A stretch of DNA of 64,000 nt. It comes from an uncultured archaeon (GTDB lineage Archaea; Thermoplasmatota; Thermoplasmata; Thermoplasmatales; Thermoplasmataceae). Positions 22,820-38,935 of the stretch are shown here, one piece after another. A program made the translations under genes and the position numbers. The stretch lies in assembly GCA_000965745.1 (NCBI GenBank), contig CP009479.1:864001-928000 (forward strand). Reading direction: 5' to 3'. Position 1 is the stretch's first letter, and every line of letters starts with the position of its first letter. The notes beneath the pieces were generated by a model that had not been told where the DNA came from, searched no databases, and saw nothing but the letters and a program-made list of their open reading frames with translations.

Positions 22820-22904
22820 GCAGGGGTTGTCGAGATTGGTCAAAGGCGCTAGATTGAGGGTCTAGTCCCGTAGGGGTACGTGGGTTCAAATCCCATCCCC
22901 TGCA
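22820..22904 (+). tRNA. tRNA-Leu (GAG)
   Basis: GCAGGGG/CCCCTGC acceptor stem, CTAGA-TTGAGGG-TCTAG anticodon arm, long variable arm, GGTTCAAATCC T arm; no encoded CCA. Confidence 0.96.
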
Positions 22905-22905
22905 T
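22894..22905 (+). repeat. attL core (tRNA-Leu 3' end)
   Basis: CATCCCCTGCAT followed by acc-TCCAAAT. Confidence 0.8.
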
Positions 22906-23166
22906 ACCTCCAAATGTTCAAAACACTACACCAGCAAACGATCCATTTTTGTAACTCTTTAAATACTAAGCGTAATTCATACTACTATATTCATATTTAA
23001 ACATCACTAATTGTGTTTTAAACACATACTCTTTGAGAAGGAATTGTCGGAATTGGCATAGGAAAATGGTTTCCCCATTCTATTAGGTTGAACCTTACAG
23101 CGGCATAGAAAATTCCAAATTTCCGCCTTGTAGAGAAAAATATTAACGAAGATTTAAATTATTGGG

Positions 23167-24237
23167 GTGCCTGTAATACGTAAGGATATGATCGAAGAAA
23201 GCAATCCAGCAGAGGATTCAATTCGACACTTTGCGGCCCAGGCATCTGCTTTTAAAAGTCACAAGAAAGCAAGGGACGCTGCATTTAAAGCTTGGAGAAC
23301 AATGAGAGCTAGAGAGCTTGAAATAGCTTCTAGGGGAGTTCCAAGGCTAGATAAATTCAACAAAGACGCATACCTAGTTCCAGAAGGCGTCAGCTTCTCG
23401 ACATACAGGACTTCTTCTCCTTTAGTTAAAACCTCAAAGCTAACGAGCAAGGAAAATGGCGGTGTTGGGAAGGAACTCTCAGACGGTTGGGTAGCAAATT
23501 ATGCTACAGGATGCACTCATGGATGCAAATTCTGCTACGTGGATGCAATCCATAAAAAATTTGGTCAGAAAAGGGTTGGCAGTATTGTGTATGATGACTG
23601 GGGAGATTACTTTGCTATCCCTTCCAATCTGGACGAGGTTATTGAAAATACTAAGTGGAAGAGGTGGAGCGGGACTGAAGTGATGCTTTCATCAACTCAT
23701 GACCCATATCTTCCTCAGGTTAACAAGTACACAAGAAAAATCCTCGAAAAGGCTCTTCCCGAAGGGGTAAAATTCTGCATACAAACGAGAAATCCACTTG
23801 TGGAGCGTGATATGGAGCTTATAAGTCAATACCGGGACCAAGTGAGACTTCAGGTGTCCATAGCATCAATGAATGAGGATCTCTCCAGAGCTATAGAACC
23901 AAGGGTAGTTAAACCAGAAAGAAGACTGCAAATCCTCGAAAAGGCTAGAGAACATGGGCTGAATACCGGAGTCATAATAGCTCCTGTATTCCCGGAACTA
24001 AAAATCAGACCACACGTTTATGCAGACATAAAAGCCATTGCCTCAAGACTAGAGACATTTAGGCCAGACCACATATATGGCGAATCACTGCATCTAAGGG
24101 GAATAAACATAGCATATGTTGAAGATGCACTTGGGCAAGCAGTGAATATCGATGGGTTTGACAAAAAGGCGGAAGAATGGTTCCACAAAGCCTTAAGTTG
24201 CTATAATCTGAAAGGAATTTGGTGGAAGGAGTTTTGA
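23167..24237 (+). CDS. Radical SAM protein, SplB/spore-photoproduct-lyase-like
   Basis: NYATGCTHGCKFCY (CxxxCxxC), SSTHDPY, TRNPL..RD, IEP...PERRL, IAPVFP. Confidence 0.85.
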   Translation: MPVIRKDMIEESNPAEDSIRHFAAQASAFKSHKKARDAAFKAWRTMRARELEIASRGVPRLDKFNKDAYLVPEGVSFSTYRTSSPLVKTSKLTSKENGGVGKELSDGWVANYATGCTHGCKFCYVDAIHKKFGQKRVGSIVYDDWGDYFAIPSNLDEVIENTKWKRWSGTEVMLSSTHDPYLPQVNKYTRKILEKALPEGVKFCIQTRNPLVERDMELISQYRDQVRLQVSIASMNEDLSRAIEPRVVKPERRLQILEKAREHGLNTGVIIAPVFPELKIRPHVYADIKAIASRLETFRPDHIYGESLHLRGINIAYVEDALGQAVNIDGFDKKAEEWFHKALSCYNLKGIWWKEF

Positions 24238-24244
24238 ACTATTC

Positions 24245-25255
24245 TTATTCAGTATCAAACTTCAGGGTCTGTTGTTCAAAACATTTGTTAAGGGCTGTCT
24301 CAGCATCTTGTCCAGTGACATTTTCAAGATGGTAGGCTATCCAGTTAACAGACTTGACCCAATCACTTCCGGTTAGTGTATTTCTCGTGTAATAACCTAA
24401 GTGATATACGGGTGTATTTTTACGGGAATAAATTGGGAAAGCTTGCCCCTTCTCTTTTCCTATGCTATCTTCGAATTGTTTGTTCAACAGGCTTCTATAG
24501 GTTCCCTTCGAGTTTAGGTCGTTCATTTCAACATCAAGTATTTCCTTCAACTCCTCTGGGGTTTTGCCCAAACTGGTGCATATTGCCTTTACATAACCTA
24601 GATTACCTTTCTTCAGGGCACCATAAACTCGTTCAGATCCAGAGCTAATATTCACTAGGTAATCAACCCCTAAGTATTTTGAAGATAGGTATCTGTAAGT
24701 TCTCCAGTCAGTTTCCATTCCTTCTTGGTCCCCAAGGGCAAAAATAAGTGGCTTTTCAAATTTTTCTTCTATCAATTTGACGGCTTCACCGATTTTTTTA
24801 TTACAGTTGCCCTCGATTACATGAAACTTATCTTGAAGCCCCATTTGACCAACCCTACTTTTCAAGAGGCGAGCTCTCTCTTCGTTGCTCTCAATAAATA
24901 TCGCCATGTCAAATTCTCTGTTTCCCTCTTGTTCCACGGTTGCCGCAAAAGGAGATCCCACAACAGCTCTAAGTTTGCTACCTCTCTTGCCTCTAGTGAC
25001 AGTAAGGCCACCTCCCGCGTACAGGTCAAGATAAATAGCTCCGTCATAATTTGCAGAAATAGCTTTTTCTCCCTTAGCTACCATCAGAAATCTGCTTGCA
25101 ATGCTCCTCACTGCAACCAGTTTAGACAGCGTATAGGGCTTATAACTCACATCGTGGCTCGATGGTTCAAACACTTTTGCTAGCCTGACAATAGTTTCTA
25201 TTCTGTCGCTTAAATATTTGATAGAGGCATCAATACTCGGTTTCCTGACTTCCAA
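24245..25255 (-). CDS. TcmP-like (three-Cys-motif partner) Rossmann-fold methyltransferase
   Basis: T.SKL, YLDLYAGGG, GSP, FIE, GNCN, DQEG..W pattern of the TcmP/GMT family. Confidence 0.75.
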   Translation of the reverse strand: MEVRKPSIDASIKYLSDRIETIVRLAKVFEPSSHDVSYKPYTLSKLVAVRSIASRFLMVAKGEKAISANYDGAIYLDLYAGGGLTVTRGKRGSKLRAVVGSPFAATVEQEGNREFDMAIFIESNEERARLLKSRVGQMGLQDKFHVIEGNCNKKIGEAVKLIEEKFEKPLIFALGDQEGMETDWRTYRYLSSKYLGVDYLVNISSGSERVYGALKKGNLGYVKAICTSLGKTPEELKEILDVEMNDLNSKGTYRSLLNKQFEDSIGKEKGQAFPIYSRKNTPVYHLGYYTRNTLTGSDWVKSVNWIAYHLENVTGQDAETALNKCFEQQTLKFDTE

Positions 25256-25523
25256 TTTAAAGATCAGTTTATATCATGAAACTGACCATAAAAAAATGTA
25301 TCGGTCAAGCAGCCCTTGAATATTTCTCAATAGACTTCTTAATTGATGACATGACTTCAGAGAAACAAGTGCTGCTTACTAAGAGTTTTTGATACCATAG
25401 TATCAAATTTGTGGAGTTAGCGGAATACCATCTCTCCGAGAAACAGTTTTTTGTAGAGACTGACTGCTAACGATTATTAGCAGAGTAATCGCTTTGAAAA
25501 CCAGTATCAGAAAGGGTTTGCAG

Positions 25524-25569
25524 AGGGGGATAATGCCAGGGTATATTACCCCCTTTGACAATTATATAA
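25524..25569 (+). promoter_or_regulatory. Promoter of the element replication operon: inverted repeat plus TATA box
   Basis: AGGGGG(A)TAAT...ATTACCCCCT (25524-25554), then TTATATAA (25562-25569) about 25 nt before the RHH ATG. Confidence 0.55.
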
Positions 25570-25594
25570 GTAGAACACAGGAAGTGATGAGAAA

Positions 25595-25801
25595 ATGGTT
25601 GACAGAATAAGTGTAGCTTGCCATGATGACTTCTTGGAAAGTCTTGATAAGCTTTCAGAAAGGCTTACGCTCTCCAGAAGTGCAACGCTAAGGCTAGGAG
25701 TGTATGAGTTGGCTAAAAAGGAAGGTATGGGCCCTGGTGACGTTAACACCAGGAATCCCGTGGACAGTTCCCAGGAGTTGAACCAAGGAGAGTCCGTATG
25801 A
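25595..25801 (+). CDS. CopG/ribbon-helix-helix DNA-binding protein
   Basis: RISVA beta strand, LDKLSERLTLSRSATLR helix-helix. Confidence 0.8.
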   Translation: MVDRISVACHDDFLESLDKLSERLTLSRSATLRLGVYELAKKEGMGPGDVNTRNPVDSSQELNQGESV

Positions 25802-25932
25802 AAGATACAAACTTTGCTAATAAACATTCGCAATCAGACCGTAAAAATACAGGTTCTCCAGCTAACAATAGGGCTGAACGGATGAAAGAATACATGGATC
25901 TCCTGGACGAGCTCTTTGAGGGTGTTGAGTGA
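25798..25932 (+). CDS. Small hypothetical protein (44 aa)
   Basis: ATGA overlap with the RHH gene, GGAG RBS, abuts the helicase gene. Confidence 0.5.
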   Translation: MKDTNFANKHSQSDRKNTGSPANNRAERMKEYMDLLDELFEGVE

Positions 25933-25943
25933 GGAGGACCAAA

Positions 25944-28094
25944 ATGCAACCAAGTGGTTATTCTGCACTTTCAGTGGCCTTAAGTCCTGGTCAGATAGAT
26001 GAGTTTGAGAAACGCCTGCAGTTCCTCACAGAAGGTCGTTCAAAGAAATTCAGCGAGGTTTTGTCACAATATTCTGCGGTCGCAATCACTTTGCATCAGG
26101 CAAAGGAAATTGATCGCCTGAGAGGGATTCAAAGCAAACTGGTCAGGGTGTATGACATTTACAGCGGATATGACCAGCCCGACCCCGCTCCAGAGCTAGT
26201 TGAGGGATGGATGGAATCTGTAAGAGAGGAGGTCATCAATAAGAACGAAGTTGACCGTCAAAAGCTAGCCCAGGAAATAAACGAGGAATACGGGTTTGCC
26301 AATCTAAATGGTGTCGAGTTCCTTAGATACGATGATGCTGAAGGATATTGGAAGCCTGATGCTGAGTTGTTCATAGGGAAGATAGTCAGACATGTTCTGC
26401 CCGATGAGTCCACACAACATATTGTCAATGAGGTTTGCCATTGGATTAAGGACTATAGACTATTAGCAAACCCTTCTGAATTTGAGAAAGTCCCTGATGG
26501 GTTGATAAATATGCCAAGAGGTGTGTTCAACATCAGAACGGGAAAGCTGGAACCCCACAATCCAGACTACCACTTCAGATATGTGTTGCCTTTCAACTAC
26601 AATCACAGGGCCAGGAAGTCCAAGTTCATGAAGGTCCTTTCCGAGATTACTGAGGATGACCCCCGTAAAGCTGTTAGGGTTCTAGAGATGTTTGCATGGG
26701 TCCTCATTCCTGGATATCCCATACAGAAAGCTATTGCACTGTATGGGAACGGAAACAATGGAAAATCAGTGATTTTGGGAGTTCTGTCTGCATTTGTAGG
26801 CTCCCTAAATGTCTCTGGCGTCACTATGCAGCAGTTATGTGACAACAGATTTGCCGCAGCAAATCTTAGAGGGGCCCTTGCCAACATCTCAGGAGATGTC
26901 GGTGCAGGTGCATTACTGGACACCTCTCAGTTCAAGCAGGCAACGGGAGGGGACAGAATAGATGCGGAGAAGAAGGGCGTTCAGGAACCCTTACGGTTCT
27001 GGAACACAGCTAAGATGATCTTCTCCTTCAATACTCTTCCAAGAACCAGAGATACCACTAATGCGTATTTCAGGCGGTTTGAGTTAATTGAGTTGGTACA
27101 GGACTTTGAAGGCAGAGAGGACAAGAAGCTTCTGAGCAAGCTCACAACAGAGGATGAGTTGCAGTCCATATTCAACACAGTCAGTTCGGTATTCCTGCCA
27201 GCGCTCCTGGATAAGCTGGAGTTCGAGTTCGGAAAGAAGGCTGATGAAATCAGGACAAATTACGAATTGAATGCAAATTCCGCTCTTGCATTCATAGATG
27301 AAAGAATAGCGCCTAACAGCATTGGACAGATACTTTCCCAAGACCTATATGCCAAATATACTGAATGGTGCAAGGAAAAAGGAGTTGTTGCACTCTCAGA
27401 GGAATCCTTCGGAAGTGCACTCATCAAGCTGTCAGGCATAGAAGGGGTTTTTAAGTCTCGAAAGCAGGAGAACGGTGTCAGGAAAAACTACTACGTTGGA
27501 ATATCTTTGACAACACCTGAGAATGATTCTAACAAACCTAAAAACAAGGAAGAGACCCCGACCTATGGCACGTTTGAAGAGGCAGTATTAGACTATATTT
27601 CCAATCACTTCAAGGACCGGAGTGCCATAGGTGGCATAGTATCTGTACTCCCGGATGGTTTGGGAAACGGTACGAGAGTACAAAACCCATGCCACCTATG
27701 GCAGCAAAAGAGAACCATACTCTCAAAAGATGCCGTAATAGCATCTCCAGAGAAGTGCCATAGCTTATCGGTACCTATGGCAGAAGATGATTCCAAAGAC
27801 TGTGTCTCCCCATCTGAAGTTGACGACATCAGCGAAAGTAATGAAAACGAGGGAGTGCAGACAGATACTGAAAAATCACTGCTTGAAAGAGTTATCGACC
27901 TTCTTACTGATTGTACATACAACACCACAGAGAAATTCAGATCTGTTCAGTATCTTGCTGAAGCAGCAATAGACGGAGACATCACACATAGCACAATCTA
28001 CGAGGCTCTGGAGGAAGGGGTTAGCCGGGGACAGGTAGTCAAGAAGGGTGCAAAGTACGGATTCAAGTGTTACGTTGGAGGTGATTCAACATGA
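25944..28094 (+). CDS. SF3 (D5/P4-family) replicative helicase, no recognisable primase domain
   Basis: INMPRGVFNI..G.LEPH.P (D5_N), GNGNNGKS Walker A, FKQATGGD.IDAEKK, FSFN.LP, AYFRRF, LYAKYTEWC wHTH; GAGGAGG RBS. Confidence 0.9.
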   Translation: MQPSGYSALSVALSPGQIDEFEKRLQFLTEGRSKKFSEVLSQYSAVAITLHQAKEIDRLRGIQSKLVRVYDIYSGYDQPDPAPELVEGWMESVREEVINKNEVDRQKLAQEINEEYGFANLNGVEFLRYDDAEGYWKPDAELFIGKIVRHVLPDESTQHIVNEVCHWIKDYRLLANPSEFEKVPDGLINMPRGVFNIRTGKLEPHNPDYHFRYVLPFNYNHRARKSKFMKVLSEITEDDPRKAVRVLEMFAWVLIPGYPIQKAIALYGNGNNGKSVILGVLSAFVGSLNVSGVTMQQLCDNRFAAANLRGALANISGDVGAGALLDTSQFKQATGGDRIDAEKKGVQEPLRFWNTAKMIFSFNTLPRTRDTTNAYFRRFELIELVQDFEGREDKKLLSKLTTEDELQSIFNTVSSVFLPALLDKLEFEFGKKADEIRTNYELNANSALAFIDERIAPNSIGQILSQDLYAKYTEWCKEKGVVALSEESFGSALIKLSGIEGVFKSRKQENGVRKNYYVGISLTTPENDSNKPKNKEETPTYGTFEEAVLDYISNHFKDRSAIGGIVSVLPDGLGNGTRVQNPCHLWQQKRTILSKDAVIASPEKCHSLSVPMAEDDSKDCVSPSEVDDISESNENEGVQTDTEKSLLERVIDLLTDCTYNTTEKFRSVQYLAEAAIDGDITHSTIYEALEEGVSRGQVVKKGAKYGFKCYVGGDST
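27563..27782. repeat. Iteron-like TGCCATAG/CTATGGCA array inside the helicase gene (putative origin)
   Basis: Five exact octamers in alternating orientation, including a perfect 15-bp inverted repeat at 27623-27637 / 27689-27703. Confidence 0.75.
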
Positions 28095-37192: not shown

Positions 37193-38935
37193 GTGAAAAC
37201 CGATGTAACATTCGTCCACCCTCCAAGTATTTACAACTTCAGATCGAGGAATCTACGTCCCGGGCCCATAAGTGACGTAGTACCATCGACACCTGTCTTT
37301 GAAATGTACCCCATAGGCCTCATAAGCATGCTCAACTACCTGACGACTAGGGGGTACGATGCGAGAATCAGTAATCTAGCTGTCCTTATGCTGTCATCCA
37401 GCACTTTTGACGAAGAGGCATACCTCAAGGGGCTGGATTCGGACGTTTTCGGTGTGGACCTTCACTGGCTTCCCCATGTTCATGGCGCCATAAATGTTGT
37501 TAGAACACTCAAGAGGCTCCACCCGGAATCAAAAGTTGTCCTTGGGGGGTATTCGGCTTCATATTTCGCTGAGGAGATAATGCAAACATACCCCGAAGTT
37601 GACTATGTGCTGAAGGGAGACCTCCAGGAGAGGCCCATGCTCGACCTGGTCGAATACACGCAAGGGAAGGGGGATGTAGAGGACATAGAAAATCTGCTTT
37701 ACAGGCAGAATGGTGCTGTCAAGTCAAACAAAAGGTCAAATGACCTCAAGAGAATGGATGATGTGTTCCTCAACTACGAACTTCTTCTGAAGAACGCCTT
37801 GAAATACCACGACATAAAGGGGCACCTCCCATTCCTTTCCTGGATATACAACCCAATGGCCATGACGCTTATCCAGCATGGCTGCAACATGAACTGTGCT
37901 TTCTGCGGGGGCTCGTATTATTCCTACAAGAAGAACTTCTTCCCGCATTCTCCCATAGTCCGTGATGTCAGCAGAGTGGTGGACGAGGTGGAACTGGTGC
38001 ACCAGAAACTGGGTGCCCCCATCTTCATTGCCGGAGACATAAACTACTCAGGCGAAAAATTCTATACCCGCTTCTTTAAGGAGATAAGGGAAAGGGGGAT
38101 AGACATACCATTGCTCACGGAGTACTTCACGCCTCCGGGGCTCGATTACTATCTGGAACTGAAAAAGGCATTCCCCGAGTATACTTCTGAGATTTCTCCT
38201 GAATCTTCCGTGGAGAACATAAGGGCTAGAACAGGGAAGGTGTACTCCAACAAAGACCTTGAAAAAAGCGTAAGGCATGCGGCCGAAAATGGATGCAGAA
38301 AATTTGACATATATTTCTCGATCGGTGTTCCCGGCCAGGAACCGGATGACGTCTTCGCGGATGTAAAGTACTCTGAAAAGCTCTTCAGGGACTTCCATGA
38401 CACTAGAATGCAGCTTTCTGCCTTCATATCGCCATTGACTCCATTCCTTGATCCGGGATCTCTAATATACGAATTCCCCGATAGGTACGGATACAGGATT
38501 AGGGCAACCGGGATACAGGACTATTACGATCTTCTTGATTTCGGATCAGGCTGGGAGGATTTCCTCAACTATGAGACAGACCGGATGAACAGAAAGACCA
38601 TTGAGGAGACTACATACATCGCTGCCAAGATGATGGCAGACCTGAGATTCAGGATGGAATACATAAGCGAAGCAGAACACTCAAGAATAGTAGAGAGCAT
38701 TCAGGAGTATGTTGAGGGAAAGCCTGTGGAACACAAAGGGCGCCTTGACCACCATCTGACTTACATGAGCAAGGAAATACAGTGGTCAAGGAAACACCAC
38801 CTGACGCTGTCGTCATTCATGATCTTCCTGTACCGCCAATACTACGGGCTGGAAAACTCCAGGATGGTCCGGAAACTAATTGCAGGATTTGCGGCTCCGT
38901 CCAAGAAGAAGGAAAGCACCAACGTCCAGCCTTAG
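37193..38935 (+). CDS. B12-binding radical SAM protein, Ta0216/TIGR04190-like
   Basis: HPPSIYNFR, GPISDVVPSTPVFEMYPIG, DLHWLPHVHG, CNMNCAFCGGS, PFLDPGS. Confidence 0.85.
   Translation: MKTDVTFVHPPSIYNFRSRNLRPGPISDVVPSTPVFEMYPIGLISMLNYLTTRGYDARISNLAVLMLSSSTFDEEAYLKGLDSDVFGVDLHWLPHVHGAINVVRTLKRLHPESKVVLGGYSASYFAEEIMQTYPEVDYVLKGDLQERPMLDLVEYTQGKGDVEDIENLLYRQNGAVKSNKRSNDLKRMDDVFLNYELLLKNALKYHDIKGHLPFLSWIYNPMAMTLIQHGCNMNCAFCGGSYYSYKKNFFPHSPIVRDVSRVVDEVELVHQKLGAPIFIAGDINYSGEKFYTRFFKEIRERGIDIPLLTEYFTPPGLDYYLELKKAFPEYTSEISPESSVENIRARTGKVYSNKDLEKSVRHAAENGCRKFDIYFSIGVPGQEPDDVFADVKYSEKLFRDFHDTRMQLSAFISPLTPFLDPGSLIYEFPDRYGYRIRATGIQDYYDLLDFGSGWEDFLNYETDRMNRKTIEETTYIAAKMMADLRFRMEYISEAEHSRIVESIQEYVEGKPVEHKGRLDHHLTYMSKEIQWSRKHHLTLSSFMIFLYRQYYGLENSRMVRKLIAGFAAPSKKKESTNVQP

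Follow-up and report, generated by a model that had tools for sequence, protein, structure and literature searches.

A convergent radical SAM–TcmP gene pair in an integrated element of a Thermoplasmataceae archaeon: a mobile module with a possible role in DNA modification

What is the function of two convergent genes carried at one end of an integrated element in an uncultured archaeon of the Thermoplasmataceae? The stretch of DNA analysed here, referred to below as the window, comprises 64,000 nucleotides of contig CP009479.1 (assembly GCA_000965745.1, positions 864,001 to 928,000), and the gene pair occupies positions 23167–25255 of it. The first gene (23167..24237, + strand) encodes a radical S-adenosylmethionine (SAM) enzyme which resembles spore photoproduct lyase (SPL) in fold, and the second (24245..25255, - strand; 336 amino acids, TTG start) a protein of the TcmP family. 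As the initial annotation of this DNA had described, the two open reading frames (ORFs) converge, their stop codons being parted by a 7-nt spacer (24238–24244), so that the 3′ ends of the two transcripts must overlap or abut. We hold with high confidence that the two genes work together as a coupled pair, and we put at about even the chance that this pair is a functionally coupled, horizontally mobile module making a site-specific DNA modification in the conflict between element and host.

The case for coupling comes from other loci, in the gathering of which only the radical SAM gene served as the query. Genome and viral contigs yielded almost nothing to scans with the single protein, and viral contigs gave 1 locus to an alignment-based scan; metagenomes alone proved productive. 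The whole set comprises 80 metagenome, 2 genome and 1 viral loci, or 78 loci after removal of duplicates. TcmP genes were detected by searching six-frame ORFs with a hidden Markov model (HMM) built from the TcmP relatives; in 14 of the 78 loci the contig ends too soon to judge, which leaves 64 evaluable loci. In 56 of these the radical SAM gene has a TcmP-like gene no more than 300 bp away (45 convergent, 10 co-directional and downstream, and 1 upstream), and in 4 more the distance is at most 1.5 kb. The convergent genes at homologous loci often overlap by 3–32 nt. Viewed from the other side, all seven TcmP relatives that were looked up (7/7) adjoin a radical-SAM-type gene with the Cys motif. 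A failure to co-occur elsewhere had been named beforehand as what would refute the proposal, and the two genes do keep company; chance adjacency is ruled out by these counts. The predicted complex of both proteins, for which each was given its own alignment and controls were not run, scored 0.00, which is no evidence either way.

The radical SAM enzyme consists of 356 amino acids if translated from the GTG at 23167, or of 349 if translated from the ATG at 23188. It matches Pfam family PF04055 at 4e-21 and carries the cluster motif C116-x3-C120-x2-C123 (CxxxCxxC). More than 500 homologues share 50–77% identity with it, those given names being assigned to the Nitrososphaerota or the Thermoplasmatota. 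An alignment of 22 homologues shows the three cluster cysteines, the Tyr124 that directly follows them, and Cys204 to be invariant, and so is a long run ahead of the cluster, GGxGKxLSDGW, which in the window protein forms the conserved loop GGVGKELSDGW. The basic N-terminal helix to which the initial annotation had drawn attention (about residues 32–54) proves to be real, with A38, A42, W43 and T45 invariant in the same homologues. In the public gene call the protein begins at M46, has 311 amino acids and loses this conserved helix, from which we conclude that the call is truncated; the true start is most likely the ATG at 23188, with a TTTAAAT box approximately 30 nt upstream, or else the GTG at 23167. 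An exact 17-nt direct repeat, AAATCCTCGAAAAGGCT, is also present within the gene (23738–23754 and 23930–23946); its copies encode ILEKA in two helices, and it is probably due to chance or the trace of an internal duplication.

Which known enzyme does this protein resemble? The nearest solved fold, by a clear margin, is that of SPL (18.2, versus 14.5 for viperin), and the place of Tyr124, directly after the third cluster cysteine, is taken in structures of SPL by Tyr98 (see the Y98F entry, 4k9r). As judged from sequence spacing rather than residue-level superposition, there is no cysteine where Cys140, the hydrogen donor of the Geobacillus SPL, would be expected, and the invariant Cys204 lies elsewhere. 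Compared with SplB itself (PDB 4FHC and relatives; TIGR04070, PF20903), the element enzyme is only approximately 14% identical, has the additional basic N-terminal helix and a TcmP neighbour, and resides on an archaeal mobile element instead of in a spore former. Its match to phrog_13321 (1.2e-75) is to a family without assigned function. All of its NCBIfam matches are below threshold (PA0069, Rv2578c, “mobile pair protein B” and, weakly, SPL); for TIGR04470, the model of radical SAM mobile pair protein B, the score of 80.4 bits falls short of the cut-off of 410, and the neighbouring gene is a TcmP rather than a pair-A gene. Of the Pfam models, PF04055 alone was matched at E ≤ 0.01, with no match to PF07505 (DUF5131). 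Four homologues of 627–649 amino acids (P0272–P0275) contain an insertion of about 290 residues inside the enzyme, after the cluster motif, which is most likely an intein; there is one borderline LAGLIDADG match. Inteins are concentrated in replication and repair proteins, among which SplB is one of the commonest hosts (PMC4760082). Fused forms of enzyme and TcmP were sought among the longer relatives, and the sole long ones are these insertion carriers.

The convergent partner reaches the curated cut-off of TIGR04474 (TcmP) with 63.7 bits against 53, its residues 70–294 corresponding to model positions 29–250 of 263, and it matches the PADLOC candidate PDC-M41A at 9.6e-15. Its earlier description as a TcmP-like Rossmann protein is well founded, all four of the motifs quoted in support of it being present at family-conserved positions. 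No Pfam family, PF04378 (RlmJ) included, matches the protein at E ≤ 0.01, and a profile search of the TcmP family against the PDB sequences gave nothing useful. A word-based search found 1 TcmP relative and an exhaustive search 161. Modelling indicates an RlmJ/Trm1-like class I SAM-methyltransferase fold with an intact SAM-binding motif I, methyl transfer being putative. Residues conserved across all partner versions are K45, D77-x3-G81-x-G83 (motif I), G100-S101, F115, D176, G179, R209 and Y284; the window protein possesses every one of them, in addition to E122 and N152. At the position of motif IV it has D176-Q-E178-G (D-P-E-G in the family), and the (D/N/S)PP(Y/F/W) motif IV of DNA amino-methyltransferases is not present. 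The segments that are least conserved are 1–40 and 221–260. Residues ~215–295 are modelled in the order helix-helix-helix-hairpin, which offers a lead that the C-terminal part may be winged-helix-like; in a related Atlas cluster of TcmP proteins, 40% of the members bear a winged helix-turn-helix Pfam family. A Pfam scan revealed no nuclease domain in either protein of the pair.

How do the two partners evolve with respect to each other? When the 56 pairs are compared with one another, the enzymes share a median of 53% identity and never less than 44%, whereas the TcmPs share a median of 23% and as little as 13%. In 14 comparisons the enzymes are at least 75% identical yet the TcmPs less than 35%; the enzymes of loci L058 and L063 share 94% identity versus 19% for their TcmPs, and those of L049 and L080 share 85% versus 19%. 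A conserved enzyme beside a TcmP that is swapped between near-identical enzymes is the behaviour expected if TcmP is the target-selecting subunit. The exchange also operates in the opposite direction. TcmPs of the same clade as the window protein are found beside this enzyme clade (P0123, P0125 and P0127), beside two PF20903 SPL-type genes (P0124), beside a very distant relative (P0126), and beside PF07505/DUF5131 (P0133 and P0140). This upholds the earlier proposal that a canonical CxxxCxxC enzyme of SPL type stands here in the usual place of DUF5131. In three loci DUF5131 and the SPL-type enzyme occur together, which makes them, in our view, related options and not simple replacements for each other. 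The likeness between true DUF5131 and the enzyme family is confined to the N-x2-G-C...C-x2-C-Y region (hhalign E 0.011), and the weak match of the enzyme to PDC-M41B (0.0027, 85 residues about the Cys motif) falls in the same place. The three loci contain three-gene islands of DUF5131, SPL-type radical SAM enzyme and TcmP (L014:3230-6407, L028:1280-4385 and L022:3644-7969); in two of these islands the TcmP is a long version of 370–460 amino acids, and L028 harbours a second TcmP, of the window clade, 4 kb away.

The closest known system is the TcmP/three-Cys pair (TIGR04474 together with PF07505 DUF5131, “phage Gp37/Gp68”; PDC-M30/PDC-M41). Like its TcmP, that of the window passes the TIGR04474 cut-off and matches PDC-M41A, and both systems are two-gene, often tail-to-tail, arrangements on mobile DNA and near defence genes. 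Same-clade relatives of the window TcmP pair with DUF5131; the window protein does not. Unlike DUF5131, its partner is a full-length SPL-type enzyme of approximately 350 amino acids, with the canonical CxxxCxxC motif and a clade-specific basic N-terminal extension, and without PF07505. On RadicalSAM.org DUF5131 lies in megacluster 5-2, beside SPL in 5-3 (PMC9477430). The SPL-type partner and its exchange with DUF5131 lead us to regard the window pair as an archaeal SPL-type variant of the catalogued TcmP/three-Cys pair.

If the enzyme is related in fold to a DNA repair enzyme, does it repair DNA? Part of the answer lies in the host genome. Sixty-one genomes were examined, namely that of the host and those of 60 relatives, with the TcmP-linked clade of the enzyme defined by scores of >500 bits. 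A radical SAM match occurs in 45 of the 61, for the most part to a distant SplB-like paralogue of approximately 285 amino acids, whereas the TcmP-linked clade is restricted to 4/61, this genome included, with a convergent TcmP each time. A genome search with TIGR04474 missed TcmP in the host's own genome at a loose setting and was left out of the counts. None of the eight paralogue loci that were fetched has a TcmP near the paralogue. In the host itself the paralogue is a protein of 284 amino acids (L102 2683-3537) encoded directly behind a gene with Nre_N and Nre_C domains (the two together at L102:1430-3537 = G000:C1:1147929-1150036); over the catalytic core it shares 31% identity with the element enzyme, and it has the motif C-x3-C-x-Y-C-Y. 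The Nre-linked paralogue is core, being present together with Nre in most of the host's family, and the element enzyme is accessory and TcmP-linked. What sets the latter apart from the paralogue is an N-terminal extension of approximately 70 residues and the conserved loop ahead of the cluster, both of which are candidates for contacting TcmP or the substrate. Linkage of Nre with an SplB-like protein of unknown substrate has been noted in archaea, and Nre proteins, which are PCNA-binding, have been connected with DNA repair (Giroux and MacNeill, reviewed in PMC4929162). The archaeal Nre-linked proteins resemble the element enzyme in being SplB-like and tied to a second DNA-associated protein.

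This is the ground for the main rival explanation, in which the enzyme, as SPL does, reverses a lesion (an intrastrand or interstrand crosslink, or a dimer resembling the spore photoproduct), TcmP assists it by finding the lesion, flipping the base or handling SAM, and the element protects its own and the host genome, for example around induction. The SPL fold, the placement of Tyr124, the linkage of the paralogue to a PCNA-binding, repair-associated protein (PMC4929162) and the occurrence of SplB-like genes in bacterial SOS and repair neighbourhoods (PMC3765255) all speak for it. An enzyme for a common lesion, however, should not need a hypervariable and exchangeable partner, nor does the patchy, mobile distribution fit, since the core Nre-linked paralogue is already present in most of the host's family. 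Restriction and defence neighbours outnumber repair genes, and from archaea no spore photoproduct is known (PMC4929162). We consider repair rather unlikely.

The neighbouring genes are suggestive of conflict. The Pfam families that occur most often in the 150 nearest neighbour ORFs are PLDc_2 (6), ResIII (5), Helicase_C (4), N6_Mtase (4), MmeI_Mtase (4), DUF5131 (3) and SNF2 (3), and the PADLOC models matched include mad2 (5), type IIG enzymes (4) and DrmD/PLD-helicase/BrxH (3). In L079:2972-6616, L058:2089-5481 and the related loci L072, L074, L056 and L063, the gene that directly follows the pair encodes either a DrmD-like PLD-SNF2 helicase of 1214 amino acids or an MmeI/type IIG-like methylase of 1131; in L063 a D12-class adenine methylase is encoded upstream as well. 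As in the window, the pair in L006 lies beside a D5-type primase on an element. Such surroundings agree with the definition of PDC-M30 and PDC-M41, which are untested candidates recognised by their embedding in BREX, DISARM, Hma or type I restriction-modification (R-M) loci (bioRxiv 10.1101/2024.01.29.577857).

Could the pair then be a restriction system based on radical chemistry? TcmP would read a motif, methylate self sites and guide the enzyme, which would turn SPL chemistry to harm, crosslinking by a radical route any incoming DNA that lacks the mark, or damaging its bases. Specificity would reside in the variable subunit and the effector function in the conserved one; DUF5131 and the SPL-type enzyme would then be alternative effectors of one large, unrecognised class of defence systems in bacteria, archaea and viruses. 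The convergent, separately promoted genes resemble many R-M systems, the specificity-like partner is variable and exchangeable beside a conserved effector, some loci lie among R-M, BREX-like and DISARM-like genes, and there is the match to a PADLOC candidate. Type III R-M (Mod/Res) is a useful working analogy, for it too has a variable, specificity-bearing, SAM-binding subunit beside a conserved effector, and is mobile and found in defence neighbourhoods. In contrast to it, the window pair contains neither nuclease nor helicase, its methyl transfer is putative, and at some loci the enzyme has no partner, as one would not expect of a toxic effector. The motif IV of N6/N4 methyltransferases is absent from TcmP, and no protection phenotype has been reported. 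Furthermore, we know of no radical SAM enzyme that acts as a restriction effector. We therefore regard this explanation, in either its narrow or its wide form, as quite unlikely.

Is the substrate DNA at all? Because the predicted fold of TcmP resembles that of RlmJ, the 23S rRNA m6A2030 methyltransferase (PF04378), and of Trm1, one may suppose that TcmP and the enzyme modify rRNA or tRNA of the host or the element, and so tune translation or resist RNA-targeting attack. The resemblance is in fold only: motif IV of TcmP reads D-x-E-G, without an aromatic residue, and the protein is hypervariable and mobile, not housekeeping. A conserved RNA target is a poor fit to so variable a TcmP, the nearest fold of the enzyme and the context of its nearest paralogue point to DNA, and no rRNA or tRNA modification genes are prominent among the 150 neighbour ORFs, all of which makes modification of RNA very unlikely. 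To an alternative in which the substrate of the enzyme is a free nucleotide or metabolite, in the manner of viperin, and TcmP methylates the product, we give hardly any credence: SPL stands clearly above viperin in the fold comparison; the N-terminal helix of TcmP, its K45 and its winged-helix-like C-terminus fit nucleic-acid enzymes better; and no transporter or biosynthetic genes were seen among the neighbours. That the substrate is a nucleic acid is accordingly probable, and DNA is somewhat favoured over RNA. In favour of DNA are the SPL fold, the Nre-linked paralogue, the SOS and repair neighbourhoods of SplB-like enzymes, the likely inteins, and the winged-helix-like C-terminus of TcmP. 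A role in conflict, rather than in repair, is suggested by the status of the pair as element cargo, the defence-type neighbours and the match to PDC-M41A, and falls slightly short of an even chance.

How might a site-specific DNA modification be made? With its [4Fe-4S] cluster and SAM, the radical SAM enzyme, which belongs to the SPL/DUF5131 branch, would generate a 5′-deoxyadenosyl radical. TcmP may recognise a DNA site, flip out a base and perhaps methylate it, whereupon the radical enzyme would abstract a hydrogen at the exposed base and leave a site-specific covalent modification. A swap of TcmP would then redirect the module to another target. For the element, the module would be conflict cargo with which to mark its own DNA or to exclude other viruses and elements.

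Several observations weigh against this proposal. The initial annotation assigned the enzyme to an SplB-like class, which stands as regards the fold and the Cys motif and does not extend to membership of the SplB family: the score for TIGR04070 (SPL) is 15.4 bits against a cut-off of 400, the SPL model PF20903 was not matched at E ≤ 0.01, and a search of PDB sequences with the enzyme-family profile found no solved structure. Given the 15.4 versus 400 bits and the lack of a structure match by profile, “SPL-like” is here a statement about fold alone. The winged-helix-like nature of the TcmP C-terminus is read from the order of secondary-structure elements only. In 4 loci with room for it the radical SAM gene lacks a TcmP, and at one of the TcmP-less loci, L057, a gene for a MazG pyrophosphohydrolase fills the TcmP position; the enzyme may hence work alone or on nucleotides. 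Defence-type genes are frequent among the 150 neighbour ORFs, in keeping with the defence setting surmised earlier, but as several loci are related and there is no background rate to serve as a baseline for enrichment, these counts are only suggestive. Finally, the literature searched holds no functional study of TcmP, DUF5131, PDC-M30 or PDC-M41.

The element that carries the pair is delimited by a tRNA gene and a short repeat. The tRNA-Leu(GAG) gene (22820..22904, + strand; ARAGORN) is the integration target, and its 3′ end holds the left attachment (att) core: the 12-nt repeat CATCCCCTGCAT represents the last 12 bases of the tRNA (22894–22905) and recurs as the right att core at 34090–34101. 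The core is only 12 nt in length and is followed by a 3-nt indel and then by a further common TCCAAAT. A tyrosine integrase (32731–34035, - strand; PF00589, 8.7e-26) is encoded at the right-hand end and possesses a C-terminal zinc-ribbon-like segment (residues 337–358; weak DZR match). Taken together, the tRNA-Leu gene, the repeats and the integrase define an integrated element of 11.2 kb, with the pair at its tRNA-proximal end, where the initial annotation had located it, and thus as cargo at the end opposite the integrase. Its impression that the pair is AT-richer than the host is likewise correct: the G+C content is 42.3%, compared with 47.0 ± 1.7% for equal-sized windows outside the element, just 0.4% of which are as low.

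Transcription of the radical SAM gene may start from a putative promoter at 23136..23160 (+ strand), where inspection of the sequence reveals the A+T-rich, TATA-like boxes AAAAATATTA and TTTAAAT, which would serve a leaderless or short-leader mRNA. On the other side of the pair, a putative divergent control region (25256..25594) extends from TcmP to the gene of a CopG-type ribbon-helix-helix regulator (25595–25801, + strand; PF01402), and has ATATAAA and TTTAAA boxes on the - strand just 5′ of the TcmP start. Next follows a D5/P4-type primase-helicase (25929–28094, + strand; PF19263/PF08706/PF03288; TIGR01613, 1e-54), and the element also encodes a block of small membrane proteins. Three of the membrane proteins of the window element recur (31–43% identity) in the element at L057:5911-11004, which has a radical SAM gene followed by MazG. 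A B12-binding radical SAM protein of the host (580 amino acids, 37193–38935), encoded 3 kb past the element, is unrelated to the pair.

What, then, does the pair mean for its family? To our knowledge, few two-gene modules without a known chemistry are as widespread on the mobile DNA of prokaryotes as the TcmP/three-Cys pair. The pairing of TcmP with DUF5131 is already catalogued (TIGR04474; PADLOC); new are the interchangeability of SPL-type enzyme and DUF5131 as partners of a single TcmP clade, the partner swapping quantified over 56 pairs, and the contrast that the host genome itself affords through its core Nre-linked paralogue. Because a full-length SPL-type enzyme fills the partner slot, the whole class is tied to a DNA-acting enzyme. 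Should the element enzyme turn out to be a repair enzyme, it would answer the question of what archaeal SplB-like proteins repair. If instead the pair places a site-specific, radical-derived mark on DNA, it would represent a new epigenetic or immune chemistry, and might provide programmable base-modifying enzymes.

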